Counted from the stretch's first letter, positions 12,835 through 62,018 are shown. The stretch: 64,000 nt of DNA from Patescibacteria group bacterium (GCA_041662665.1 JBAZSC010000001.1:577511-641510), one strand, 5' to 3'. Notes: generated by a model not told the origin, from the letters alone. Numbers and translations: made by a program.

Positions 12835-15018
<2,184 letters not shown>

Positions 15019-32599: not shown

Positions 32600-32716
32600 T
32601 AATTTAGTCATAATATAATACGAATTTACGAATTATGCAAATGTTGCGAATATACAAATACGACGATTTGCATATTTGTATCATTTGCATTTATTTGTAT
32701 ATTCGTATTATATTTT
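32600..32716 (+). repeat. palindromic region built from ATTYGYAT-type 8-mers; the 3' 28-mer is identical to the pyrG leader
   Basis: atgcaaatgttgcgaatatacaaatacgacgatttgcatatttgtatcatttgcatttatttgtatattcgtattatattttca. Confidence 0.7.
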
Positions 32717-33818
32717 CAAACAAAGACAAATACTTTCCACAAATTCTATCCCAACTATATTGTTTAGAATTATATTCAAATGAATTTCTGGCAAACAATC
32801 TCGCATAATCTGGATCATTCAAAAATTTATTTATGTTCTTTATGAATGATTTCGAATTCAGAGATTCAACTAAAACACCATTTTTTTTATTTTTAATTGC
32901 ATCTTTGATGCCTTCAATATCAGAAGCCAAAACAGGTAAACCCCAATTTGAAGCTTCAATTGCCACAATTCCAAAACCTTCCAAATCATTCTTAATTTTT
33001 ATATTTGGCATTACAAAGACATCAGATGCATAACAAACTCTTTTTAATTCTATTTCAGAAAGTCTGCCTAATAAAAAAACTCTATTTTCCAATTTCTGTT
33101 TTGAAATAATACTTTTGATTCTTGAAGCATCATTTCCAGATCCAACGATAAGATAATCAATACTTTCATCTAAATTTGGCATTACATTTTTCACAAACCA
33201 AGCCACGCCTTTTCTCTTTATTAATCTTCCGACAGTTATCAAAACTTTTCTTTTTTTCATCTGCTTTTTACAATATTTAAACAGATATTTTTTATAACTT
33301 GATTTAACTTTTAAATAAGACAATCTAGATTTATGCAAAGAACTCAAAACATCATTTTTATAAAAATCAACGCCATTTGGAATAAACAAGCACTTTTCTT
33401 TTGGAACATTTCTTTTCACACATTCATCAATTGTTGAATTTGAAACACAAATAACTTTATCCAAATGTTTTAATTGTCTGACAATAACAAATTGATACAA
33501 AGGATTTGAATAAGTCACATCCAATCCATGAGCAGTTATCAAAACAGGTTTCTTTGTTAAAAATTTCAAAATAGAACCTGCCATTGCCATAAAAGAATCG
33601 CAGAAATAAATCAAATCGCAATCGCGCGACATAAAAAAACCTTTGATTATAGAATAGGGAATAAACCAAACTAAATGCCATTGCGATCTTTTTAAAGCAA
33701 TCAATCTTTTTTGACAATCAATATTCTCAATCAAACCCTTGCTATATTTTTCCATTCCACCAATTTGCGGTGGATATTTTCTAGTTATAAATAATACTTT
33801 CATAAATTTTAAAAGCAC
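32691..33818 (-). CDS. GT4 glycosyltransferase
   Basis: Carries EGFGIVAIEASNWGLPVLASDIEGIKD. The C-terminal NIIRIYK is encoded by the shared 28-mer. Confidence 0.8.
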   Translation of the reverse strand: MLLKFMKVLFITRKYPPQIGGMEKYSKGLIENIDCQKRLIALKRSQWHLVWFIPYSIIKGFFMSRDCDLIYFCDSFMAMAGSILKFLTKKPVLITAHGLDVTYSNPLYQFVIVRQLKHLDKVICVSNSTIDECVKRNVPKEKCLFIPNGVDFYKNDVLSSLHKSRLSYLKVKSSYKKYLFKYCKKQMKKRKVLITVGRLIKRKGVAWFVKNVMPNLDESIDYLIVGSGNDASRIKSIISKQKLENRVFLLGRLSEIELKRVCYASDVFVMPNIKIKNDLEGFGIVAIEASNWGLPVLASDIEGIKDAIKNKKNGVLVESLNSKSFIKNINKFLNDPDYARLFARNSFEYNSKQYSWDRICGKYLSLFENIIRIYK

Positions 33819-39857: not shown

Positions 39858-42137
39858 ATGAAAAAAATAGTCGCGATTCTAACATTTTTCTTCATCTGTT
39901 GCATTTCTCAAAACGCAAATGCAGCTTATGGAGATGTCACAACATGGCTTAGCAGAATTTATACAGGCGATGGTGGACAACCTAGACAAGCATATTTAGA
40001 CTTTTGTGAAGATGTCTTATTTGATAAAGGTGGCAATATGATAATTGCCGATACCTATAACAATGTTATCAGAAAAACAAACAGCAGTACGACAAAAATT
40101 ATAACTTTAGCAGGTACAGGATCATATGGAGAACGAGATGGAAAAGCCAACCAAGCAGAATTTGGACAACCTCGTGGCCTTGCATTATCAGGAAGTACAA
40201 CTTTTGTTGCAGATACTTGGAATCATAAAATAAGAAAAATATCTAATGGCAATGTTACTACAATAGTTGATGATGGATTATATTTTCCTGAAGGTGTTGA
40301 AGTTTATGGATCAACTCTTTATATAGCTGATACAGGACATGGATCAATTAAAAAAACATCTCTCAATGGGGGAAAAGTAACAACGCTCATAAGCGGAAAA
40401 GGATTAATTGCGCCTGTTAAACTTAGAGCTGATTTAACTGGTAAAAATCTTTATGTTGCAGATATAGAAGCGCATAAATTATTTAAAATTAGCACTTCAA
40501 ATGGCACAATTGAAACAATTGCCGGAAGTACAGAAGGATACAAAGATGCGACAGGAACAAATGCAAAATTTCGTTTTTTAGCAGGTGTTGTTTTGGATGA
40601 AATACAAAACAGCCTTTTTGTAACAGATGGCAATGGCTCAACTGATTATGTCAGAAAAATAAATTTAGCTACCAGAGAAGCTACCACAATCGCAACTGAT
40701 CCAATTATGGTTACTCTTAATTATCCAAAAGGTCTAGACATTAAAGGAAATTACATTTTTGTCGCCAATTCTGGCATCAGTTCAATACAAAGAATACATC
40801 GCTATACTGGAGTAACATTGCAAGATGGCGATCGTGTTGCTGGTAAAAAACGATTCGAAAACGATTTTGGAAAAAGAACACGCTCATTGGTGGGTCGTCC
40901 AAACGACATGATATATTCACTAAAGAAAAAGAATATTTATGTTGCTGAAAATAATTTAATTAGAAAAATTAGGGTAAAAGATCGTTTCACGAAACACGTA
41001 GTTGGAAGTGTTGTTGATGCATATAAAGAGGGTATTGGCTCAGCTGCACGATTTAGTAGTATTTCATCAATTATTTTAGATAAAACTGGCAAATACCTAT
41101 ATCTTACAGACCGTTGGAATAATAGGATTAGAAGAGTCAATTTAGCAACACAAGAAACAGAATTAGTCTCAGGCAGCGGCGAAAAAGACTGTACAGGACA
41201 ATGTAATGGCTATGAAGAAGGCTCAAAAAATACAGCTCATTTTAGCAATCCTTCAGGAATCACTATTTCTCCTGATAATAAATATCTATACGTTACAGAC
41301 ACATCTAATAATCGAATTAGAAGAGTGGAAATATCAACTGGAGAAACATCATTTATAGCTGGCTCTGGAGAATCAACCTATGCAGATGGAATCGGCAAAA
41401 CTGCATCATTCAACCGTCCTTATGCCATTACAATAAACAAGGCTGGAACAAAACTTTATGTCGCAGATTCATACAATAACAGAATCAGAGAAATCGATAT
41501 AGCTTCAAAAAAAGTAACAACATTAGCTGGCAATAATATCCGTGGCTATCGTGATGGTTATAGAACAGATGCTTCATTTTCAACACCAAACTATGTCAAA
41601 ATGGGGAGCGATAATTTTTTATATACAACAGAAGCTGGTACTCATACAGTTCGAGTCATTGATCCAAGAAATGGTTTAGTTAAAACAATCACCGGCACAG
41701 ATACAAGAGGCTTTCAAAACGGAGATAGATATCACACTGAATTCAATAACCCATCAGGCATCTTGCTTAGACCAAAAAAAGGAAAATTATACGTTGCCGA
41801 CACCTGGAATGATTTAATTAGAAAGGTTGACATCACAGGTTCTCACAAATTTTACGAAAAAGCTCCAGTTGTCACAGGAATTTTACCAACAAATCGTTAT
41901 CCATATTCAGGAAATCCGAGTGAAACAAAATATCTTGATGTCACAGGTTTTAATTTTATGTCAGCTGCAACAGCATATTTTGGATCCTTCAAAGCCAATA
42001 AAACATATTTCAAAAATTCAACTGCTTTGACAGCTGTCATTCCATTCGGTAAAATGCCAAAAGGTACCTATGATGTTAAAGTTGTAAATATTGATGGCCA
42101 GGAATATACCAAAAAGGGTGCATTCGTTATTGAATAA
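39858..42137 (+). CDS. secreted NHL-repeat beta-propeller protein with a C-terminal IPT/TIG-like domain
   Basis: Has a signal peptide and at least 8 NHL-like units (YNNVIRKTN, WNHKIRKIS, WNNRIRRVN, SNNRIRRVE, YNNRIREID, WNDLIRKVD). The C-terminal Ig-like tail is VKVVNIDGQEYT. Confidence 0.75.
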   Translation: MKKIVAILTFFFICCISQNANAAYGDVTTWLSRIYTGDGGQPRQAYLDFCEDVLFDKGGNMIIADTYNNVIRKTNSSTTKIITLAGTGSYGERDGKANQAEFGQPRGLALSGSTTFVADTWNHKIRKISNGNVTTIVDDGLYFPEGVEVYGSTLYIADTGHGSIKKTSLNGGKVTTLISGKGLIAPVKLRADLTGKNLYVADIEAHKLFKISTSNGTIETIAGSTEGYKDATGTNAKFRFLAGVVLDEIQNSLFVTDGNGSTDYVRKINLATREATTIATDPIMVTLNYPKGLDIKGNYIFVANSGISSIQRIHRYTGVTLQDGDRVAGKKRFENDFGKRTRSLVGRPNDMIYSLKKKNIYVAENNLIRKIRVKDRFTKHVVGSVVDAYKEGIGSAARFSSISSIILDKTGKYLYLTDRWNNRIRRVNLATQETELVSGSGEKDCTGQCNGYEEGSKNTAHFSNPSGITISPDNKYLYVTDTSNNRIRRVEISTGETSFIAGSGESTYADGIGKTASFNRPYAITINKAGTKLYVADSYNNRIREIDIASKKVTTLAGNNIRGYRDGYRTDASFSTPNYVKMGSDNFLYTTEAGTHTVRVIDPRNGLVKTITGTDTRGFQNGDRYHTEFNNPSGILLRPKKGKLYVADTWNDLIRKVDITGSHKFYEKAPVVTGILPTNRYPYSGNPSETKYLDVTGFNFMSAATAYFGSFKANKTYFKNSTALTAVIPFGKMPKGTYDVKVVNIDGQEYTKKGAFVIE

Positions 42138-42138
42138 G

Positions 42139-42186
42139 AATTCGAAAAGTAATTCGCAATATTCGAAAATTTATTTGAGTAATATT
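42139..42186 (+). repeat. 4 x ATTCGAAA-family element (intergenic copy)
   Basis: gaattcgaaaagta attcgcaatat tcgaaaattta tttgagtaatatt. Confidence 0.8.
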
Positions 42187-43392
42187 ATGAAGTACAACGT
42201 TATTATGTTTAACATGTCAGAATTCCGAGAATGGAAATCTGGCATTGTTAATCGAAATTATCATATTTTACATAATCTATTAGAAAAGGATCAAATCAAC
42301 AAAATATTTGCTGTCGATTTTTTGCCTTACACAAAAAAACGCGCTTTAAAAATTTTAATGCGTTCAATATTAAAATCACCTGGTGGCAAAAGAATTCATT
42401 TTGACTTAACTTCAAGATTAACAAAAATTAGTGATAAGCTTTACGTTTATTCAACAATAGATTCAATATTTAGCGAACAAAAAGTTTACAAAAAAATAAA
42501 CAAACTGATTAACAAGTATGATCTTTTTAACAATTTAACAGTTAAGCAATCAAACAATTTATTAGTTTGGTCATATTTTCCAATGTTTTCTGGCTATTTT
42601 AACTATTTTAAAAATTCGAAAATTAATTCGCAAAAATTCGAAAAAGAATTCGAGTGCGTCAGCGTCTTTGATACAGTTGATAATTGGATGGAGCATCCAA
42701 ACTTTACTAATTATAAAGACAGAATCAAAAATAATTATGAAATAATTTCTAAAGAATCAGATTATATTTTTACAGTTTCCAAAGATTTGCTTAACATTTT
42801 TCCAAACGCCAAAAATAAAGAATGGATTCCAAATGGCGTTGATCTAGAACATTTTAATAAAAAATCTGACAAAACAATAATCCATGCTGGTCATCCAATT
42901 ATCGGCTATGTTGGTACAATTGAAAAAAGATTGGATTTTGAATTGATAAAATATTTAAGCCTAAAAAATCCAGAAAAATCAATTGTTTTAATTGGCCCAG
43001 TTTGGAAAAACGCTCAAGTTGATGAACTAAAATCACAAAACAATATTCATTTTCTGGGCAGAAAATCATATTCAGAACTTCCATATTATATTAATGAGTT
43101 TGATGTTTGTATCATTCCTCACAAAATTGACAAATTCACAAAATCAATGAATCCATTAAAACTTTATGAATATTTGGCTTGTGGCAAACCAATTGTTACA
43201 ACCAAAGTTTCTGGCATCGAAAAGTTCCAAGAATTAATTTACACAGCTAAAACAAAAGAAGAATTCAATGAAAAAATAAGTCAAGCTTTATCAGAAAATA
43301 GTAAAGAGAAAATCGAAAGCAGAAAAAATGCAGTTCAAGATGAAAATTGGAAAAACAGAGTTAATCAAATGTTAGAAACAATCTCAAAATAA
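42187..43392 (+). CDS. GT1/GT4-family glycosyltransferase carrying an in-frame ATTCGAAA element (NSKINSQKFEKEFE)
   Basis: Start trimmed to the ATG at 42187; the track's N-terminal extension reads through the repeat element. The C-terminal domain has YVGTIEKRLDFELI...YEYLACGKPIVTT. Confidence 0.7.
   Translation: MKYNVIMFNMSEFREWKSGIVNRNYHILHNLLEKDQINKIFAVDFLPYTKKRALKILMRSILKSPGGKRIHFDLTSRLTKISDKLYVYSTIDSIFSEQKVYKKINKLINKYDLFNNLTVKQSNNLLVWSYFPMFSGYFNYFKNSKINSQKFEKEFECVSVFDTVDNWMEHPNFTNYKDRIKNNYEIISKESDYIFTVSKDLLNIFPNAKNKEWIPNGVDLEHFNKKSDKTIIHAGHPIIGYVGTIEKRLDFELIKYLSLKNPEKSIVLIGPVWKNAQVDELKSQNNIHFLGRKSYSELPYYINEFDVCIIPHKIDKFTKSMNPLKLYEYLACGKPIVTTKVSGIEKFQELIYTAKTKEEFNEKISQALSENSKEKIESRKNAVQDENWKNRVNQMLETISK
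42613..42656 (+). repeat. 4 x ATTCGAAA-family element inserted in-frame within the GT coding sequence
   Basis: aattcgaaaatta attcgcaaaa attcgaaaaag aattcgagtg. Confidence 0.8.
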
Positions 43393-43513: not shown

Positions 43514-45475
43514 ATGAAACATTTCAAAAAATATTTATTCCCAATTCTTATAATCGCAATAGCGTTTCTTTTTTATTTTCCTTCTCTTAATGACAATTTT
43601 TTGTCAGACGATTATGATCATTTAATGTTTGCCAGATCGGTTGATAATGTAAAAATGATTCCGGGCATCTTCAAGATTCCAGGCGATATGTATCGACCAG
43701 TCATGAATTTATCAATTGTCATTGATTATTTAATTTATCATTACCATCCAACAGGCTTCCATTTTACAAGTTTATTATTATTTATTTTGTCTGCACTCTT
43801 AATTTATGCAATTGTCAAAAAGATTTCTAAAAATAGCTTAATGTCTTTTTTTGCTAGCTTAATTTTTATTGTCATTCCAAATCATTTCGAAACAACAATT
43901 TGGATCGCTGGCCGAACAGATTTGCTTGCTTGTTTTTTCTATTTATTAACAATTTATTTATTTATCCAATTTATTTTTAAAGAAAAATATTCTTGGCTCA
44001 TTTTATCTTATTTAGCTGCCATTCCCACATTTTTCAGTAAAGAAATTTCCATGACCTTGCCATTCACAATTGCCTTAATCTATTTAGTCTACTTAAGAAA
44101 AGAATCAAAGTTTAGCTTCAAAAAAATATTCTTGCTTTGGCTACCTTATATTGCACTTCTCATCATTTACTTAGTAATTCGTAAACAAATCGTCGGCAGT
44201 TGGATCGGAGGCTACAGATTATTTGGCGAAGTGTCTTCAACGTCTTTCTCTCCAAAAGCAATTTTATTGCCATTTTATTTTGTAAAATATCTATTTAATT
44301 TTGATTACCTTGCATCTTTTATTCCCAAATTTGCTACCAATTTTTCTGCTAATTTAGTTGCCATTTCAGGAATTGCAATTTTTTCAATTACAGCATTTTT
44401 ATTAAATTTAAAAAATCTCAAAAATCTAAAATTTTGGAAAAATATTGTCTTTTTAATTTTCATTACATATTTCGTCTCCATTCCAAATTTTTCAATTCTG
44501 CCTTCTTTGAAATTAAATTTAATGAATACTAGAGTCTTGTACATCGCCTCAATTCCAATTGCCATTTTAATCTCATATTTAATTTTTTCTACCCTCCCCA
44601 TGGGAGGGGTGGGCAAAAAGCTAAGAATAATTTTTGCATCTTTGATTTGCATTATCTTTAGCATCGGATTTTTCTTTAATTACATGCCTTGGCACAAGGC
44701 CCAAGCTAAATCAAAAATAATTCTAGATAGTATACAACAATTGCATCCAGAATTTTCCCAAATAGTTTATGCAACTTATGACAAAGAATTATTTTTCAAA
44801 AATTTGCCAGACAATATTTATGGCGCCTTTGTTTATCGCAATGGATTTCCAGAAGCTTTAAGAATTAAATTTAATAATAAAAAGATTTTCGTAAATCCAA
44901 AAGAAAAAATTGTTTGGGTTGTTAAAAATAATAAGGATGCCATTACATCTTTATGTAATTTCAAAAAAAATCCGCAGACAACTGGAATTCAAGTTTTTAA
45001 TTGGAATGACCTAGATGAAGTAAACAGATTTATTGAACAGCCAAGCATCGCCGAAAAACAAGAAAATAAAAAAATACTTAAACAACAATATTCTCAGCAA
45101 ATTCAAGAGTTTAATCAACAATTAAACAATTTAGCGCTTGAGCAATTTAACAATATAAATTCAAGTGGAAAAACAACAGCATTAAAAAGTCCTGAATTAA
45201 ATTTTCCTCCACAAATTATTGATGAATTAAGTTTTAAAATGACAGCGCAACAAAATTCTATCGCTGACTTTTTATGGCGTACAAAAAATTCAAAATTTAA
45301 CGACTTAAATAATAATATTTTACTGCCAATTAAAGCAGGGGATAATGAATACAAAATTGATTTAACAAAATGCCCAGCCTGGTTTACATCAACAACAAAT
45401 GATATCAACCAATTTGAATTAATTCCAACTGAAAAAAGACAGAAAATTAAAATAGATAATATAGAAATAAAATAA
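43514..45475 (+). CDS. GT-C family membrane glycosyltransferase (PMT/ArnT-like) carrying an in-frame REP-like insertion
   Basis: A polytopic protein with the first-loop motif FLSDDYDHLMFARS. The GC-rich palindrome at 44587..44613 encodes STLPMGGVGKK. Confidence 0.6.
   Translation: MKHFKKYLFPILIIAIAFLFYFPSLNDNFLSDDYDHLMFARSVDNVKMIPGIFKIPGDMYRPVMNLSIVIDYLIYHYHPTGFHFTSLLLFILSALLIYAIVKKISKNSLMSFFASLIFIVIPNHFETTIWIAGRTDLLACFFYLLTIYLFIQFIFKEKYSWLILSYLAAIPTFFSKEISMTLPFTIALIYLVYLRKESKFSFKKIFLLWLPYIALLIIYLVIRKQIVGSWIGGYRLFGEVSSTSFSPKAILLPFYFVKYLFNFDYLASFIPKFATNFSANLVAISGIAIFSITAFLLNLKNLKNLKFWKNIVFLIFITYFVSIPNFSILPSLKLNLMNTRVLYIASIPIAILISYLIFSTLPMGGVGKKLRIIFASLICIIFSIGFFFNYMPWHKAQAKSKIILDSIQQLHPEFSQIVYATYDKELFFKNLPDNIYGAFVYRNGFPEALRIKFNNKKIFVNPKEKIVWVVKNNKDAITSLCNFKKNPQTTGIQVFNWNDLDEVNRFIEQPSIAEKQENKKILKQQYSQQIQEFNQQLNNLALEQFNNINSSGKTTALKSPELNFPPQIIDELSFKMTAQQNSIADFLWRTKNSKFNDLNNNILLPIKAGDNEYKIDLTKCPAWFTSTTNDINQFELIPTEKRQKIKIDNIEIK
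44587..44613 (+). repeat. REP-like GC-rich palindrome (ccctccccatgggaggg), an in-frame copy
   Basis: ttctaccctccccatgggaggggtggg matches the hairpins flanking the RAYT gene. Confidence 0.75.
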
Positions 45476-45476
45476 A

Positions 45477-45498
45477 AAAATCATGTTTTCACATGATC
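45477..45498. terminator. hairpin (atcatg-ttttca-catgat) between convergent genes
   Basis: Read directly. Confidence 0.45.
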
Positions 45499-45784
45499 AA
45501 AAGTTCCATTTTATGCCTTTCTTCAACGAATCAATTCGTTTGAATGCTATTAAAATAATTATTACTGCTTCGCCTAAACCAAGAAACAAAAGACCCTCAT
45601 CCCCCTCTTTTAAATAGAAACCACCCAGTATTAACATAAAAGAAAGAAAAATCCCAAATTTCCAAAATCGTATTGAATCAAGCCAACTCTTTTTCTTAGC
45701 AAAGAAAACATATGAAATAATAATTGTACAAGAAAACATTACGATACAAAACAAACACTTTAGTATTAGCATTATTGTTTCCAT
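45497..45784 (-). CDS. small membrane protein (95 aa, 2-3 TM)
   Basis: An ORF with a hydrophobic profile, divergent from the GT2 gene. Confidence 0.4.
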   Translation of the reverse strand: METIMLILKCLFCIVMFSCTIIISYVFFAKKKSWLDSIRFWKFGIFLSFMLILGGFYLKEGDEGLLFLGLGEAVIIILIAFKRIDSLKKGIKWNF

Positions 45785-45913
45785 CCCTTCCTCCTCCTCC
45801 AGTTTCTGCTTTCAACGACAACCAAATATAGCATAAATTAAAAATAATATCAAATAATATAACAATTTATATTTATTCTAACCAAAATTATTAATATTTA
45901 ATATTCAACATTC

Positions 45914-46828
45914 ATGCTTCTCTCAATCATCATAGTCAACTGGAACACTAAAGAATTATTACGCAAATGCATTCAATCAATCATGTCAAACGCGCCTAGT
46001 TTTGATTATGAAATAATTGTCATCGACAATGCCTCAACTGATGGTTCAGCTGATATGCTAAAATATGAGCTTTCCAAAGATCAATATTTAGATCGTTTTG
46101 ATTCTGTTACCAATGCTCATGTCATTATCAATGAAAAAAACTTAGGCTTTGCAAAAGCAAACAATCAAGGAATAAAAAGAGCAAAAGGGGATTATATTTT
46201 ATTATTAAATCCAGATACCGAAGTCCAGCATAATTGTCTTCAAAGAACAGTTAATTTTTTGAATGAATTCAAAGAAGTTGGAATTTTAGGATGCAAACTT
46301 TTAAATCCAGACAGAACACTTCAACATTCAGTCAGAAAATTTCCAACTCTCATGTCTCAAGTTCTAATTCTCTTAAAACTTCATAATTTATTTCCAACCT
46401 TAAAGTCCTTACAAAATTACTTTCTTCCAAACTTTGATTACAATAAAAGCCAAGAAGTTGACCAAGTCATGGGCGCATATTTTTTAATTAACAGAAAAGT
46501 AATAGACAAAATTGGCATGCTGGATGAAAAATATTGGATCTGGTTTGAAGAAGTTGATTATTGCAAAATGGCCAAAAATGCTGGTTTTCAAGTTTATTAT
46601 TTCAAAGATGCAGAAACAATCCATCAAAAAGCCCAAGCTTTTAATCAAGTTTTAGGAATAAAAAAACAAGTTTATTTAAATAATTCACTTTTGCATTATT
46701 TCAATAAATTCCATTCACTATTTAGCGTTCTTGTAATTTTATTTTTATATCCAATAAGTTTATTTTTAGCCTTGATTGTTGATTTTGTAAAATTGTTTAT
46801 TCCCGTAAAGAAAAAAGAAAACCTTTAG
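45914..46828 (+). CDS. GT2 glycosyltransferase with a C-terminal TM segment
   Basis: Carries LSIIIVNWNTKELLRKCIQSI...IVIDNASTDGS. Confidence 0.85.
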   Translation: MLLSIIIVNWNTKELLRKCIQSIMSNAPSFDYEIIVIDNASTDGSADMLKYELSKDQYLDRFDSVTNAHVIINEKNLGFAKANNQGIKRAKGDYILLLNPDTEVQHNCLQRTVNFLNEFKEVGILGCKLLNPDRTLQHSVRKFPTLMSQVLILLKLHNLFPTLKSLQNYFLPNFDYNKSQEVDQVMGAYFLINRKVIDKIGMLDEKYWIWFEEVDYCKMAKNAGFQVYYFKDAETIHQKAQAFNQVLGIKKQVYLNNSLLHYFNKFHSLFSVLVILFLYPISLFLALIVDFVKLFIPVKKKENL

Positions 46829-46862
46829 CTTCTACCCTCCCCATGGGAGGGGTTTGTGAAAC
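46829..46862 (+). repeat. REP-like GC-rich hairpin (left flank of RAYT)
   Basis: cttctaccctccccatgggaggggtttgtgaaac contains the 17-bp perfect palindrome ccctccccatgggaggg. Confidence 0.8.
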
Positions 46863-46881
46863 AAAAATAAAACAAAAATCA

Positions 46882-47496
46882 ATGCAACAACCCCTTCCAC
46901 AAAAACAAAAAATATTTTGGCAAGATAATTCTTTTTATTTTTTAACAACCTCAACATTTCTGCATTATCCATATTTTAAAGTGCCTGAACAAAAACAAAT
47001 TGTTTTAAATAAATTCAAGCAAATCAAAGAGATTTTAAAAGTTCCTTTTCAATCACACAGCATTGCAATCAACCATTTTCATATTATGTTTTATTTAAAA
47101 TCCGGAAAAACAATGGCTCAACTAAAAAATATGTTGCACAGTGGAATATCAAGAGAATACAAAAAATTTTATCAAATCAAATGCAAAAATTTCTGGCAAA
47201 CAACAAAAATATTTTTTATTAAGGATGAAAAAATGTACTGGCAAATTATTGGATACATCAATGGCAATCTACTAAAACATCGAGAAGTTAGCAGATTTGA
47301 AGACTTAAAAGAGAATCCTTTTTCAAGCTACAAATATTATGCAGAAAAATATGGCGATGAAACAATGCAAGGATTAATTCGAAATGTTATAAATCTTGAC
47401 GAAGACAATGAAGGAACGCTTGATCTTAAACAGCTTAAATCATTAAAAACAAAGAATTTACCTCAAACCACGCAACCCTTGGCATGGCCAAGGTAG
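46882..47496 (+). mobile_element. REP-associated tyrosine transposase (RAYT, IS200/IS605 TnpA-like Y1 HUH transposase)
   Basis: Has the HUH motif HFHIM followed by MAQLKNMLHSGIS, comparable to IS200 HxHhh...KGxSS. The N-terminal YFLTTST resembles the RAYT YHVTxR block. A candidate catalytic Tyr lies in MYWQIIGYINGN. GC-rich REP-like hairpins flank it on both sides. Start trimmed to the ATG at 46882. Confidence 0.6.
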
Positions 47497-47498
47497 AA

Positions 47499-47533
47499 GT
47501 TCTACCCTGCCCACGGCAGGGGTTCGTAAAACA
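47499..47533 (+). repeat. REP-like GC-rich hairpin (right flank of RAYT)
   Basis: gttctaccctgcccacggcaggggttcgtaaaac has a 7-bp stem ccctgcc/ggcaggg and the same flanks as the left copy. Confidence 0.8.
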
Positions 47534-47541
47534 AGCAAAAA

Positions 47542-49263
47542 TCATTCAATCATTATCTTCTTAAACTCAACTGAACCCTTTTTACTTCCTACAAAATCCA
47601 ATCTAATAATCTGCACCAAATCATTTTTTCTTAAATCAAAATCAAATTCATAAGCATGAAATTTTCCATCTTTATGAATTTTTTTTATAACAGAATTACT
47701 AGACAAAAAATCCTTATCGCCAAGATATCTAAATTCAACTTTCAACTTTTTAAATTCAGTATTCTTTAATTTTAATTTTAAACATTTAACAACATTAGTA
47801 TCCAATCTCAAATTCGGATCACTTCTCAAAAATGCATCTTTCTTATTTATTTTTAAAACATAATTCTTATTTTTATTTTTCCATTTAGAATTTTTAGCAA
47901 TCCATTTTTTAGATATTAAATTATATTTTTCATCATTCGAAATTAATGGTTTATGTTCATTTGTCCAATCAATATGCAAAAAAGCATTCTTATTTAAAAA
48001 CGCTAGAATAATCAAAATCAAAACTGGCATAATAAATTTTAACTTGCCAGCAAAAATAATATTTATTGCCAAAACAAACATTAACATTGCAGAAAATAAT
48101 GCTGGCAAAAGATATCGTCCTTGTGGCTGATAATTATCTAAGCTGTAATAAAAAGTTGTCAAAAAAGCAACAATAAAAAACAAAAATATTATCAAAACAA
48201 TATTAAATTTATCTTTTTGCTTTTTCCAAATTAAAAATAAAGAAACAGGCAATAATATTGCAACTAAAATTAAAAAATATAAAAAATAATCATAATATTT
48301 TGGATCAAAACCGATATTAGCTTGTCCAAAAACACCTAAAAAATTCTTAAATAATTCATTTAGCCAAGTTACAAAATTATTAAAATTCCATAGATCTCGA
48401 TGCTGTCCTTCCCAAAATTTATTGGCAAATTTCAATCCAAAGATGTCACCAACAAAAATCAGATTTCTAAACATCCAAGCAAAGCAAACAATCAAAGCAG
48501 GCGATAAAGTAAATTTCAAATAATCTTTCCAATTGTTTCTATTTTTCCAAAATATAATTATTAAAAATAACATTGCAAATGGATACAACGTCAATTTTGT
48601 CAAAAACGCCAAACCAGCAATCACTCCACAAACGAATAAATCAAGATTAAAAAATCGTAATTCGCCAATTCGCATATTCGTATCATTTGCATAAATTCGT
48701 ATATTTGTATTATGCTTAACAACAAAATACAGCATCATCACACCCAGCAAATTAGCTAAAACATCATTATTAAGCACCCCAGAAATAAACAAAAACATTG
48801 GCCAAAAACAAAAAGCCAATGTCAAACTATAATAAATTATTCTTTCTTTGTCCGCCGTAGTCCCGCAGGCTTGTCTGCCGTAGCCGAAGCGAAGGCAGGA
48901 CGAAGGCGGATTAAACAATAACTTAGCGGTAAGAAAAGCAAAAATGACGGTTAAAACGCCAAGCAAGCTTGAAAAAAATCTTAAAATTTTTATTTCGGAA
49001 TCAATTAATATTTTATTTTTTAAGACAAGATCAATAGGCGATAAAAAAAGATAATATAATGGCGGTTGATGCGCTTCCCAAAAAGAAGTTTTATTTGTTA
49101 GAGCAGGAAAGTGATGATTATTATTTAAAAATCTGATATATTCAAAATGAGAGAACTCATCTGGTGCAGAAAACTTTTCTGTCTTAAAATTATATATATT
49201 TGCAACAATCAAAAATATCCCACACATCAGAATTAAGAAAATAGCATCAACTTTATTTTTCAT
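47542..49263 (-). CDS. GT-C family membrane glycosyltransferase (GT39 PMT-like, DE motif) carrying two in-frame repeat insertions
   Basis: The first loop has FSAPDEFSHFEYIRFL, resembling the PMT DEVHFG motif. The GC-rich insert at 48851..48910 encodes PSSCLRFGYGRQACGTTADKE. The AT-rich ATTYGYAT insert at 48655..48720 encodes NIRIYANDTNMRIGE. Confidence 0.6.
   Translation of the reverse strand: MKNKVDAIFLILMCGIFLIVANIYNFKTEKFSAPDEFSHFEYIRFLNNNHHFPALTNKTSFWEAHQPPLYYLFLSPIDLVLKNKILIDSEIKILRFFSSLLGVLTVIFAFLTAKLLFNPPSSCLRFGYGRQACGTTADKERIIYYSLTLAFCFWPMFLFISGVLNNDVLANLLGVMMLYFVVKHNTNIRIYANDTNMRIGELRFFNLDLFVCGVIAGLAFLTKLTLYPFAMLFLIIIFWKNRNNWKDYLKFTLSPALIVCFAWMFRNLIFVGDIFGLKFANKFWEGQHRDLWNFNNFVTWLNELFKNFLGVFGQANIGFDPKYYDYFLYFLILVAILLPVSLFLIWKKQKDKFNIVLIIFLFFIVAFLTTFYYSLDNYQPQGRYLLPALFSAMLMFVLAINIIFAGKLKFIMPVLILIILAFLNKNAFLHIDWTNEHKPLISNDEKYNLISKKWIAKNSKWKNKNKNYVLKINKKDAFLRSDPNLRLDTNVVKCLKLKLKNTEFKKLKVEFRYLGDKDFLSSNSVIKKIHKDGKFHAYEFDFDLRKNDLVQIIRLDFVGSKKGSVEFKKIMIE
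48851..48910 (+). repeat. GC-rich imperfect inverted repeat inserted in-frame in the GT-C gene
   Basis: tccgccgtagtcccgcaggc...gcaggacgaaggcgga; about 65% GC in a roughly 30% GC context. Confidence 0.7.
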
Positions 49264-50514: not shown

Positions 50515-50585
50515 TTATTCGAAAAGGTATTCGCTTATATTCGCAAAAGTATTAGAGTGAGCCCCGAAAAAGTATTAGAGTAAGG
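50515..50585 (+). repeat. divergent ATTCGAAA-family element
   Basis: attcgaaaaggt attcgcttat attcgcaaaagtattagagtgagccccgaaaaagtattagagt. Confidence 0.6.
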
Positions 50586-53650: not shown

Positions 53651-54703
53651 ATGAAAGTCACAATTTCGTTATTAAATTATAATAAGAAAAAATATCTTCC
53701 ATATTGTCTAGATTCAGTTCTTCAGCAATCACATCAAGATCTAGAAATATTTTTTGTAGATAATGCATCATCAGACAGTTCTTTTGAATACCTAAAAAGT
53801 TATGCTGAGCATAAATACCCATTAGCAAAAATAAATTTTATCAGAAACCAAGAAAATTTAGGATATTCAAAAGCACATAATGAAGTTATTAAAAAAGCAA
53901 CAGGTGAATTTATTTTTTGCTTAAATCCAGACATTATTTTAAACAAAGATTATATTAAAAATTGCCTAGAAATTTTGATGCAAAATCCAAAAATGGGTGC
54001 AATTACAGGAAAACTTTTTAAATGGGATTTTGCTCAAAATACAAAAACTAATATCATTGATTCCTGCGGACATAGAATTTTAAAAACACATCGCATTATA
54101 GAATGGGGAAGCAATCAAAAAGATTCTCCAGAATTTGAAACTATAAAAAAAATATTCAGCGTCTCTGGTGCGGCTCCAATTTATCGCAAAGAAGCACTTG
54201 AAAGTATAAAATTCAAAATTCCCCAAAATTCGAAAAATAATTCGCAAACATTCGAAAATAAATTTGAGTATTTCGACGAGTCATTTTTTGCCTACAAAGA
54301 AGACATTGATCTATCATGGCGCTTATTACATGCGGGCTGGGAAATCTGGTTTGATCACAAATCACATGCCTGGCATGACCGCTGGGAGACAGGAACAGGA
54401 GAAACAGCTCTAAAAACAGCAGAGCAAAGAAACAAAAAATCTGACTTAATTAACAAATTATCATACCGTAATCATTTATTATTGTTATACAAAAATGAAT
54501 TTGCAAGTAATTTCTTAATTTATTTCCCATGGATCTTCTTTTATGAACTTGGCAAATTCTTTTACACCTTATTCAGAGAACCAAAAAATCTATCAGCTAT
54601 AATTGAATTATTCAAACTCTGCAAATTGACCAAAGCAAAAAGAAATGCTATAATAAAAAATAGCAAGATCAAGCCAAAAGATATCAGAAAATATATCTAC
54701 TAA
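53651..54703 (+). CDS. GT2 glycosyltransferase carrying an in-frame ATTCGAAA element (NSKNNSQTFENKFEYF)
   Basis: Carries VTISLLNYNKKKYLPYCLDSV...FFVDNASSDSS. The element is at 54227..54276. Confidence 0.8.
   Translation: MKVTISLLNYNKKKYLPYCLDSVLQQSHQDLEIFFVDNASSDSSFEYLKSYAEHKYPLAKINFIRNQENLGYSKAHNEVIKKATGEFIFCLNPDIILNKDYIKNCLEILMQNPKMGAITGKLFKWDFAQNTKTNIIDSCGHRILKTHRIIEWGSNQKDSPEFETIKKIFSVSGAAPIYRKEALESIKFKIPQNSKNNSQTFENKFEYFDESFFAYKEDIDLSWRLLHAGWEIWFDHKSHAWHDRWETGTGETALKTAEQRNKKSDLINKLSYRNHLLLLYKNEFASNFLIYFPWIFFYELGKFFYTLFREPKNLSAIIELFKLCKLTKAKRNAIIKNSKIKPKDIRKYIY
54227..54276 (+). repeat. 4 x ATTCGAAA-family element in-frame within the GT2 gene
   Basis: aattcgaaaaata attcgcaaac attcgaaaata aatttgagta. 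Confidence 0.8.
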
Positions 54704-60329: not shown

Positions 60330-60389
60330 ATTCAAATAATTTGCATATTCGCTAGATTTGCATTATTTGTATATTCGTATTATATTTTC
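60330..60389 (+). repeat. ATTYGYAT-family element forming the pyrG leader (shares a 28-mer with 32689..32716)
   Basis: atttgcatattcgctagatttgcattatttgtatattcgtattatattttc, followed by the ATG. Confidence 0.7.
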
Positions 60390-62018
60390 ATGCAACCAAA
60401 ATACATCTTTATCACTGGAGGCGTAATTTCATCTTTAGGAAAAGGCATCACGTCTGCTTCAATTGGCAAACTTTTGCAAGATCTTGGATTCAAGGTCGTA
60501 AACATTAAATGCGAAATGTACGTTAACATTGATGCAGGAACAATTCGACCAACAGAACATGGGGAAGTTTATGTTACAGAAGATGGAATGGAATGTGATC
60601 AAGATTTGGGAACTTACGAAAGATTTTTGAATCAAGACATTAAGAAAGAGTGTTTTTTAACAACTGGCCAAATCTATCAAGAAGTTATCAGAAGAGAAAG
60701 AAATCTTGAATATGATGGTGAAGATGTTGAAGTTGTACCGCATGTCCCAAAAGAAATTATTAGAAGAATTAAATTAGCTACAGAAAAAAGTAAAGCCGAT
60801 TTTGCAATCGTTGAATTTGGCGGCACAGTAGGCGAGTATCAACAAGTTCTTTTTCTAGAAGCTGACAGAATGATGAAACATGAACTAAAAAAGGATGTGC
60901 TAAACATTCATATTGCTTATCTTCCTATTCCTCCAAGCGTTGGTGAAATGAAATCAAAACCAGCTCAATATTCAGTTAGAACATTGTTCTCAGCTGGAAT
61001 TGTACCAGATATTTTTATTGGCCGTTCAACAACATATATGGATCAACATAGAATGGAAGTCCTTTCAAGAAATACTAACATTGCAATTGAAAACATTTTT
61101 TCTAATCCAGATGTTAAATCAATTTATGAAGTTCCATTGATTTTAGCAAAACAAAAAGTCGCAGAATGTGTTTTAGGATTTTTTGGTGTTAAACCTAGAA
61201 AAAAAGCAAGTTTAACAAACTGGAAAAAATTAGTTAAAACAATCAAAGAAGTAAAAAAAGAAATAAAAATTGGTATCGTCGGAAAATATTTTGCCTCTGG
61301 AGATTTCTCACAAGGCGATTCATATATATCTGTCATCGAAGCAATAAAACACGCTTGCTGGGCTAATAATGTCAATCCAATAATAAAATGGCTTGATTCA
61401 GAATCATACGAAAAAGATCCAAAAAAAGTAACAGAATTAAAAGAATGCGATGGCATCATTGTACCAGGCGGTTACGGAAAAAGGGGAGTCGAAGGTAAAA
61501 TAAATGCTATTAAATTTGTTCGCGAAAATAAAATTCCATATTTAGGATTATGCTATGGCTTGCAAATGGCTGTCATTGAATTTGCTAGAAATATTTGTAA
61601 AATTAAAGATGCCAATACTACAGAGAATGAACCAAATACAAAGAATCCAGTCATTGATGTCATGGAAGCACAAAAAAAACTTTTGGCTAAAAAACAATAT
61701 GGAGCTTCTAATCGTCTAGGATCATACGAGTGCAAACTCAAAAAAGATAGCAAAACATTTAAAGCTTATGGCAAAGAAACAATTTTCGAACGCCATCGAC
61801 ATCGCTATGAATTAAATAATAGCTACAAAGAAATTCTAGAAAAAAATGGCTTAAAAATAGTTGGCCACAATCCATATTTGAATCTAGCAGAAATAGTTGA
61901 GCTAGAAAATCATCCATGGTTTATCGGTACTCAATTCCATCCAGAATTTAAATCAAGACTAGAAAGTCCACATCCACTATTTGTCAGTTTTATCAAAGCT
62001 GCAATAGATAATAAATAA
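60390..62018 (+). CDS. pyrG: CTP synthase
   Basis: MQPKYIFITGGVISSLGKGITSASIG plus a glutamine amidotransferase C-terminus (GLCYGLQ, HPEF). Confidence 0.95.
   Translation: MQPKYIFITGGVISSLGKGITSASIGKLLQDLGFKVVNIKCEMYVNIDAGTIRPTEHGEVYVTEDGMECDQDLGTYERFLNQDIKKECFLTTGQIYQEVIRRERNLEYDGEDVEVVPHVPKEIIRRIKLATEKSKADFAIVEFGGTVGEYQQVLFLEADRMMKHELKKDVLNIHIAYLPIPPSVGEMKSKPAQYSVRTLFSAGIVPDIFIGRSTTYMDQHRMEVLSRNTNIAIENIFSNPDVKSIYEVPLILAKQKVAECVLGFFGVKPRKKASLTNWKKLVKTIKEVKKEIKIGIVGKYFASGDFSQGDSYISVIEAIKHACWANNVNPIIKWLDSESYEKDPKKVTELKECDGIIVPGGYGKRGVEGKINAIKFVRENKIPYLGLCYGLQMAVIEFARNICKIKDANTTENEPNTKNPVIDVMEAQKKLLAKKQYGASNRLGSYECKLKKDSKTFKAYGKETIFERHRHRYELNNSYKEILEKNGLKIVGHNPYLNLAEIVELENHPWFIGTQFHPEFKSRLESPHPLFVSFIKAAIDNK

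Follow-up and report, generated by a model that had tools for sequence, protein, structure and literature searches.

How do short repeats come to be translated inside membrane enzymes, and do the genes that carry them survive the event? The question is raised by a stretch of 64,000 nucleotides from a Patescibacteria group bacterium (GCA_041662665.1, JBAZSC010000001.1:577511-641510), called the window hereafter, in which two GT-C-type glycosyltransferase genes, gene 1 and gene 2, flank a RAYT, that is, a tyrosine transposase associated with repetitive extragenic palindromic (REP) sequences. Gene 1 carries a REP copy, and gene 2 carries a GC-rich element of 60 nt together with an AT-rich element. 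The initial annotation had proposed that these are either tolerated loop insertions or signs of early-stage gene disruption. It is quite probable that the three unrelated short repeats persist in the two genes as translated, tolerated loop insertions. The hosts and the elements are the following:

43514..45475, + strand: gene 1, GT-C-type (PMT_2/GT39-like) membrane glycosyltransferase, 653 aa, with a C-terminal soluble domain
44587..44613, + strand: REP copy within gene 1 (core 44587-44610, TTCTA-CCCTCCC-CAT-GGGAGGG-GT)
47542..49263, - strand: gene 2, GT-C-type (PMT_2/DUF2142) membrane glycosyltransferase, 573 aa, with a C-terminal beta-sandwich domain
48655..48720, - strand: AT-rich insert in gene 2, one arm of a palindrome (core 48668-48713)
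48851..48910, no strand assigned: 60-nt GC-rich insertion in gene 2, outer hairpin of a nested pair (TGTCCGCC-GTAG-TCC ... GGA-CGAA-GGCGGA)
48863..48903, + strand: inner hairpin copy, in the loop of the outer copy (GCAGGCTTGTCTGCC-GTAG-CCGAAG-CGAA-GGCAGG)

All three inserts sit at these coordinates, in frame, within long intact open reading frames (ORFs), as had been reported, and the peptides spanning them read STLPMGGVGKK, LRFGYGRQACGTTADK and NIRIYANDTNMR. They represent three unrelated repeat families. The case for the elements rests on repetition, compensatory changes and ortholog comparison; hairpin stability is not relied on, because the thermodynamic z-scores of the hairpins, each taken alone, are mostly weak (-1.2 to -2.8). 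Exact matches of its proteins assign the window to a 645-kb contig of a Patescibacteria metagenome-assembled genome. The syntenic loci compared were L013 (gene 1 85% identical), L001/L002, L003 (a 654-kb contig of a metagenome-assembled genome, MAG), L011 and L012; near-identical alleles without the inserts were found in none of the databases searched.

Three repeat families within intact reading frames

Both hosts can be identified as GT-C-type glycosyltransferases, in agreement with the initial annotation. Gene 1 matches Pfam PMT_2 at 35.5 bits (cut-off 26.1), has orthologs at 81-85% identity and yields an AlphaFold model with a predicted local distance difference test score (pLDDT) of 83.6. 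Gene 2 as found has no Pfam match, and its homologs carry PF13231 and PF09913. Upon in silico deletion, its PMT_2 score rises from 10.7 bits to 22.4 without the 20-aa GC-encoded insert and to 39.9 without both inserts, DUF2142 then scoring 31.4 bits, and these scores equal those of the insert-free ortholog P0002. Therefore, the inserts conceal the domain of gene 2, and such splitting of profile matches can cause mis-annotation in MAGs. The best Foldseek matches of the gene 2 AlphaFold model (pLDDT 90.7, predicted template modelling score 0.92) are ArnT (5f15), EmbC, PglB and AglB, and its C-terminal beta-sandwich is carbohydrate-binding-like.

The REP core in gene 1 is translated as STLPMGGVG (residues 359-367). 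Its 24-mer, TTCTACCCTCCCCATGGGAGGGGT, occurs at 44587-44610 and again, identical at 24/24 positions, at 46830-46853, where it forms the left REP of the RAYT, with a 3-mismatch copy at 47500-47523; no match to it arose in 100 shuffles of the window. The third REP copy announced by the initial annotation is thus real, and it lies 2.2 kb upstream of the RAYT. The REP in gene 1 is identical to this master copy and probably recent. Its description as an insertion holds only in part. The element is absent from orthologs, eight of which have F-NDL-NNKKK opposite the F-STLPMGGVGKK of the window; in the DNA, however, 27 nt stand in place of 18 nt (net +9), so that the event is a replacement rather than a simple insertion. 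An Rfam match of CRISPR-DR15 to this REP (21.9 bits against a gathering score of 36, E 0.75) was taken as chance.

The 60-nt element of gene 2 (48851-48910, TCCGCC...GGCGGA) has about 66% GC in a region of 28-29% GC, is unique in the window, where GC is 27-35%, and is among the very few GC-rich islands of the latter. It is read as PPSSCLRFGYGRQACGTTAD at residues 119-138, where pLDDT is 54-71. This 20-aa segment is missing in 8/8 homologs aligned across the region, which range from 77% to 27% identity, the ninth homolog (P0003) being a fragment that begins downstream of it. The L001 locus displays a clean 60-nt gap at the DNA level, and no target-site duplication was seen at the insert junctions. 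The family unit is a hairpin of ~33 nt, CTTGTCCGCC-GTAG-stem/loop-CGAA-GGCGGA. A covariance model, R1, matches the inner copy at 46.9 bits (E 2.7e-10) and finds no other match in the window or in L001-L013. The outer arms, TGTCCGCC-GTAG-TCC ... GGA-CGAA-GGCGGAT, are near-identical to copies in L036 and L091 whose loop is GCAA only; therefore, the 60-nt element is one copy in the loop of another. It had been called REP-like, and while the imperfect inverted repeat is real, the element is unrelated to the REP of the neighbouring RAYT, being instead a nested double copy of a different and widely distributed hairpin family.

The AT-rich insert (48655-48720), which had been presented as an ATTYGYAT element, is likewise real, and proves to be half of a dispersed AT-rich palindrome. 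It is read as HNTNIRIYANDTNMRIGE, with residues 184-197 (HNTNIRIYANDTNM...) at pLDDT 64-81. The core shares with 32666-32711 a degenerate pattern of 46 nt for which 0 chance matches are expected, and the consensus of the family is AAAATATAATACGAATnTACGAATAATGCAAATGATACGAATATGCAAAT (alignment A8). Two further copies lie in the window:

32600..32715, - strand: two-arm AT-rich palindrome, intergenic (RNA fold -35.7 kcal/mol, z -4.7)
60340..60390, - strand: single-arm AT-rich copy, abutting the ATG of gene 60390..62018(+)

The former, a palindrome of ~100 nt with perfect arms, overlaps the stop codon of a glycosyltransferase gene (32691..33818(-)) and encodes its last residues, ..NIIRIYK; a second full two-arm palindrome of about 100 nt is intergenic in L003 (2404-2510). 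In gene 2, the element amounts to +14 codons relative to L013, and the loop from NND to LTK measures 59 residues in the window, 45 in L013, 47 in L001 and 52 in L012. The distant L012 ortholog contains a diverged AT-rich arm that starts at the same codon, and L013 and L001 retain only GCGAAT-like traces. The insert may be an old one that is being eroded, or the site itself may be a hotspot. The ortholog comparison as a whole indicates that the inserts are not conserved in all orthologs.

Loop position, purifying selection and rival explanations

According to the AlphaFold models, the three inserts lie in short loops between transmembrane helices, in line with the proposal of tolerated loop insertions. 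In gene 2, the GC-rich insert (119-138) is modelled between helices 87-117 and 130-152, and the AT-rich insert (184-197) from the end of helix 167-192 into the loop that follows; no other marked fall in pLDDT occurs in the N-terminal half, and two shallower dips lie further on, at about 311-320 and 431-440. The alternate loops 28-86, 153-167 and 221-223 contain the invariant residues P34, D35, E36, H39, Q66-P68, P155, N166, D167 and K223. GT-C enzymes such as ArnT and PMT have the acidic motif of their first loop on the outer side. In gene 2 this motif, P34-D35-E36, is invariant in the first extracytoplasmic loop, and the insert-bearing loops would therefore be cytoplasmic. The REP peptide of gene 1 (359-367) is modelled between helices 346-358 and 366-410, where pLDDT falls to 73, in the loop that precedes the final transmembrane helix, from which the chain passes into the extracytoplasmic C-terminal domain. 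Because of this position, and because orthologs have a Lys-rich loop at the site, this loop would be cytoplasmic as well. All three inserts would thus lie opposite the conserved catalytic face.

Insertion of this kind recurs in the surface-glycan gene cluster to which both hosts belong. Orthologs of gene 1 have other GC-rich palindromes in frame: that of L001 has a perfect one of 30 nt (14444-14473), read NTQARFRNLACEG, and the L011 ortholog has GTGGCCCAGCCTTTAGGCTGGGAC twice (1097-1120 and 2259-2282), each read VAQPLGWD. Two of these palindromes occupy the same short loop after FIQFIxxxK, which differs from the loop of the gene 1 REP in the window, and the second L011 copy is in the C-terminal domain. 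Within the window, the GT4 gene 42187..43392 bears in-frame inserts of +24 nt and +15 nt, and the GT2 gene 53651..54703 has gained 45 nt in frame (+15 aa) relative to L013/L001, in the form of a fourth, ATTCG-periodic repeat. The tally is therefore six events across four genes, 6/6 of them frame-preserving, with a probability of about (1/3)^6 if unselected, a figure that is inflated because intact ORFs alone were examined. The cluster appears to be a hotspot in which several repeat families diversify the cytoplasmic loops of membrane enzymes, which makes the insert sites candidate strain markers. The ATTCG-periodic family itself (ATTCG every 11-12 nt, AAAATTCGAAAAnTAATTCGCAAnnATTCGAAAATnnATTTGAGTA) is found at 42122-42175, 42614-42650, 50517-50560 and 54215-54265, two copies being intergenic, one corresponding to the +24-nt insert of the GT4 gene and one to the +15-aa insert of the GT2 gene. 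A different insert is present in L003 in the same loop of the latter.

The mechanism proposed begins with three separate sources. The REP in gene 1 would most likely be a recent product of RAYT action on single-stranded DNA, with the neighbouring RAYT as its putative agent, or of recombination with the master copy. The GC-rich element is a composite of two nested copies of the hairpin repeat, and the AT-rich element is one arm of a palindromic repeat of ~100 nt. Selection would then act as a filter: given that the host genes are under purifying selection, only inserts that are stop-free, come in multiples of three and fall within short loops on the cytoplasmic side, remote from the catalytic face in the periplasm, would survive. 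The six frame-preserving events are what such a filter on functional genes would produce.

Several points weigh against tolerated insertion. That the enzymes continue to function after insertion is presumed from sequence. The cytoplasmic assignment depends on helix parity and the positive-inside rule, and in the C-terminal half of gene 2 the helix count is off by one, which places the C-terminal domain on the wrong side. Because parity is inconsistent there, only the first five helices of gene 2 can be safely assigned, and a helix-parity topology for the whole protein was dropped. To our knowledge, no known RAYT reaction directly explains the replacement of 18 nt by 27 nt in gene 1. The AT-rich arm may be ancestral and partly lost elsewhere, rather than newly inserted, since an arm at the same codon exists in the distant L012 ortholog. 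Finally, gene 2 is absent from the related L003 locus, where the RAYT unit lies at the same site next to an unrelated 115-aa ORF (L003 13526-14074), and is thus dispensable in at least one relative; the presence of two inserts in gene 2 fits early decay as well.

Early pseudogenisation is the rival that survives best, although it is judged unlikely. It states that gene 2, and perhaps gene 1, is unneeded and, beside an active transposase, is gathering the debris of mobile elements, with frames that are intact because the events are recent. The absence of gene 2 from L003, its two inserts with the accompanying loss of the Pfam match, and the variable content of the glycan cluster among relatives are all compatible with it; against this, the ORF of gene 2 is full length and retains all 22 columns that are invariant over 70 homologs (22/22). 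In pairwise Nei-Gojobori comparisons, which average over long branches and are blind to recent relaxation, the ratio of nonsynonymous to synonymous substitution rates (dN/dS) is 0.15 for gene 2, like that of the neighbouring genes (0.06-0.09 for gene 1, 0.09-0.12 for the GT2 gene, 0.09-0.11 for the gene of the 395-aa protein and 0.10 for the RAYT). Moreover, all six insert events in the four cluster genes keep the frame, and the inserts avoid helices and conserved loops. The AT-rich copy is identical to the 32.7-kb copy at 40/46 positions and is thus not very recent, yet it has brought no added damage. As far as gene 2 is concerned, the invariant columns, the dN/dS value and the restoration of the Pfam match lean against the early-stage disruption that had been suggested.

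Even less likely is that the inserts are functional additions, whether hairpins in mRNA or antisense RNA with an effect on translation or on insertion into the membrane, a mobile promoter (the AT-rich arm) or new cytoplasmic peptide loops selected for a function. The 60-nt element has a stable RNA fold on both strands (-28 kcal/mol), and in the wider hairpin family one strand has more G.U substitutions than non-pairs, which suggests selection on structure; the hairpin nevertheless belongs to no Rfam family, no Rfam match at E <= 1 overlaps the element in the window, and the only match among 12 hairpin loci is an unrelated trpB (E 0.24). In L030 (1378-1425), the 3' arm of a hairpin supplies GGAGGA 7 nt before an ATG. 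As for the mobile promoter, promoter-like sites are not enriched in the AT-rich arm (8 found against 5.5 +/- 2.3 expected), and this possibility was rejected; Rfam and the promoter-site counts gave no evidence of a regulatory role of the inserts. The same loops do take inserts in several genomes, but the peptides at the same loop are wholly different between genomes, and the closest orthologs function without inserts.

Ancestral segments lost in relatives, or artefacts of MAG assembly, are very improbable: an AT-rich arm at the same codon in L012 and the GCGAAT-like remnants of the loop in L013 and L001 could be read in that way, but the GC-rich element and the REP are missing from every homolog at all distances and have intergenic family copies, a segment of 66% GC in a gene of 29% GC does not represent ancestral coding sequence, two sources record the same protein, and artefacts are rarely exact multiples of three, three times over.

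The RAYT unit and the surface-glycan cluster

Tolerated insertion of the REP in gene 1 brings the RAYT unit into focus as its candidate source. The unit and the gene that precedes it comprise the following features:

45914..46828, + strand: GT2-family glycosyltransferase (Pfam Glycos_transf_2, E 7e-26), whose stop codon abuts the left REP
46830..46853, + strand: left REP of the RAYT unit
46885..47496, + strand: RAYT-like Y1/HUH transposase, 203 aa from the conserved Met
47475..47498, - strand: inverted REP variant, TTCTA-CCTTGGC-CAT-GCCAAGG-GT
47500..47523, + strand: right REP, stem CCCTGCC/GGCAGGG (compensatory change)

The last two features form an inverted REP pair. The C-terminus of the RAYT, QPLAWPR, and its TAG stop codon are encoded by the inverted variant at 47475-47498, an arrangement that is also found in L003. 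On sequence grounds, the transposase is best regarded as a divergent RAYT relative and not an equivalog, because its scores fall below the curated cut-offs: it matches the NCBIfam model REP_Tyr_transpos (NF047646) with E 2.8e-11 and 43.5 bits (cut-off 80), and Pfam Y1_Tnp with 16.5 bits (cut-off 23). Its relatives match REP_Tyr_transpos in 51/51 cases and IS200 in 17/51, and the profile of the family finds E. coli TnpA-REP (4er8) at 8e-17 and the TnpA of IS200/IS605 (2xm3) at 2e-6 or weaker. H64, H66, Y124 and N128, among them the HUH histidines and the catalytic tyrosine, are invariant in the 51 relatives. In comparison with L003, where it occupies the same site, the RAYT has a dN/dS of 0.098 at a dS of 0.74. 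The RAYT ORF is also readable from 46843, where the CATG of the REP loop contributes its first ATG; a product started there would begin MGGV in the window and MAGV in L003 and L007, and the conserved Met lies 14 codons 3' of that ATG.

The whole RAYT unit is absent from the closer relatives L013 and L001 and located elsewhere in L012. The GT2 gene and gene 2 are convergent in L013 and L001, where 1 nt separates their stop codons; therefore, the REP-RAYT-REP'-REP unit of ~700 bp is also an insertion, at whose junctions no target duplication was seen. The REP-flanked layout of the window recurs in L003, L007 and L012, with an inverted pair in L005. A search under loose constraints in the window and the first 13 loci recovered 23 hairpins, all of which (23/23) consist of TTCTA, a 7-bp stem, CAT or CAC, a 7-bp stem and GT; the flanks TTC.. 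and ..GT, which the search did not force, are invariant. There are four main stems (CCCTCCC, CCCTGCC, CCTTGGC and CGCCGTC), whose changes on both strands preserve pairing, and two one-base variants, CCCTACC and TCTTGGC, paired at 6/7 positions. The conserved flank 5'-TTCTAC contains CTAC, the complement of the classical GTAG, presumably in a polarity opposite to that of E. coli REPs.

The window holds four REP hairpins, one of them intragenic. In the L003 genome (contigs of 654 kb and 251 kb), four exact matches to the REP pattern were obtained, two at the RAYT and an intergenic inverted pair, the inverted variant beside the L003 RAYT falling outside the pattern. No further REP-flanked RAYT copies were found in that genome, so the RAYT is apparently single copy. 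A scan of the whole collection yielded REP copies in three other MAGs, two of them Patescibacteria/Parcubacteria records and one labelled Gammaproteobacteria; given so few matches, the REP family appears to be low in copy number. A literature search retrieved no paper connecting Patescibacteria and REPs.

The C-terminal extension of the RAYT, NLDEDNEGTLDLKQL (47380-47440, residues about 170-186), has a weak likeness (E about 0.1) to loops of the EF-hand/lanmodulin type. In addition, seven stretches of a 5137-aa protein, P0226, match RAYT residues 132-187.

The surface-glycan cluster spans 39.8-55.6 kb of the window. It begins with an NHL-repeat protein, followed by GT4, GT-C gene 1, a 95-aa ORF, GT2 and the Y1 transposase, and continues with GT-C gene 2 (- strand), the 395-aa protein, a HAD hydrolase, a Wzy-like protein and then further GT2 enzymes. 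The 95-aa ORF (45497..45784(-)) has a counterpart (92 aa) in L001/L002 only.

Known systems and a widely distributed hairpin

Among described systems, the inserts can be compared with the Rickettsia palindromic elements (RPE; Ogata et al. 2000), which the summary in PMC10969869 presents as elements of about 100-150 bp that encode a conserved peptide and have no known transposase. Going by that summary, both cases involve palindromic repeats of a small, AT-rich, reduced genome that lie in frame in unrelated genes, are translated and are judged compatible with the protein fold. The features of such elements, namely a preserved frame, absence from orthologs, a dispersed family that also occurs outside genes and a permissive loop position, are present here. 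In contrast to what is summarised for RPE, the inserts described here measure 27-60 nt, belong to three families, one of which is tied to a RAYT, and reside in polytopic membrane enzymes, at inter-helix loops. Tolerated insertion in genes 1 and 2 would extend the notion of selfish DNA inside genes, best known from Rickettsia, to Patescibacteria, whose genomes are also small and AT-rich.

The REP/REPIN-RAYT systems (E. coli TnpA-REP, Pseudomonas; PMC5581495) have extragenic REPs in tens to hundreds of copies. The unit of the window shares with them a Y1/HUH transposase nearest TnpA-REP, flanking hairpins with an inverted pair, copies elsewhere without the gene, and a transposase gene that is syntenic and under purifying selection in a related genome. 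It differs in having only four hairpins in the 64 kb of the window, one of them intragenic and translated, and a protein under the NCBIfam cut-off. Thus, a RAYT-tied REP can end up translated within a gene. With IS200/IS605, the unit has in common a length of ~700 bp with one Y1 gene, same-strand subterminal hairpins, the lack of a target duplication, and presence or absence among close relatives with a clean empty site. Unlike IS200/IS605, its profile fits TnpA-REP far better (8e-17 vs 2e-6), it has dispersed solo hairpins and it is apparently single copy. A further parallel is provided by the in-frame fusions of intragenic enterobacterial repetitive intergenic consensus (ERIC) sequences and miniature inverted-repeat transposable elements (MITE) (Delihas 2007 and others, as cited in PMC10969869), in which, according to that source, small non-autonomous repeats likewise form ORF segments. 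Here, however, no terminal inverted repeats with target-site duplications are present, the elements are shorter, and one is a self-nested hairpin.

The 60-nt element leads beyond this locus. With a 19-nt pattern taken from its middle, 88 metagenome stretches of 36-69% GC were recovered, and in 47 unique cases the 14 nt downstream, which the pattern does not constrain, complete the same hairpin. The resulting form is AGGCTTGTCCGCC-GTAG-(variable stem-loop, usually CCTTGG)-CG[AGT]A-GGCGGA. In an alignment of 42 hairpin sequences 96% of the cells pair, 27 cells being G.U, and changes on both sides occur at the only two 5' positions left free by the pattern (4 and 3 cases, with one C.A exception). 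The motif is kept almost base for base across contigs of 36-69% GC and can nest in itself. R1 detects additional copies on these metagenome contigs, a number of them tandem or inverted, and the hairpin is therefore a multi-copy repeat. In other genomes it is also found within the ORFs of the housekeeping genes for MetRS, Mfd and DnaG, the usual reading being ..AKATADKP..; in MetRS, the segment falls on a gap of 7 residues in the comparison with solved structures of the enzyme. All-against-all BLAST of the flanking ORFs revealed no neighbouring gene common to the 88 loci.

The GTAG/CGAA hairpin is placed in no described family by the Rfam and literature searches, the latter of which, run with its DNA strings and peptide signatures, returned nothing relevant. 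Scans of viral contigs with two 19-20-mers of the 60-nt element gave 0 matches, and its six frames, concatenated and compared with 5.8 billion proteins, produced 39 word-sharing candidates, none of which scored, so that this comparison is uninformative. For the 60-nt element, a small intron or intein was rejected by reasoning from size and family behaviour. It is conceivable, though doubtful, that the insert belongs to an undescribed cross-phylum family of ~33-nt hairpin repeats, with a P1 stem UCCGCC/GGCGGA, a GUAG/CGAA internal loop and a variable P2. Were this the case, the family would amount to a counterpart, spread across bacteria, of the palindromic elements of Rickettsia, or to a novel motif of structured nucleic acid that has a protein partner; in either event, the widely distributed hairpin is a lead to a new family of repeats or of RNA/DNA motifs.

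Tandem arrays of the hairpin, with a spacing of 30-46 nt, occur amid genome-specific short tandem repeats, e.g., GGTGGTTAGG or CAGAAGTCAG (L060, L072, L075; L043 1-270). Other GC-rich repeats, e.g., CATTCTGAGGGAGCGAAGCGACCGAAAGATCCC, are found in a Patescibacteria contig (L009 4096-4288) and are unrelated to the families studied here. In the L003 genome, a GC-rich hairpin, TTGCCTATTGGCCAGGCAGG, lies in a UvrD/PcrA-like helicase ORF (L010 1103-1135), where it is read PTLPIGQAGNRQ and may be another in-frame insertion.

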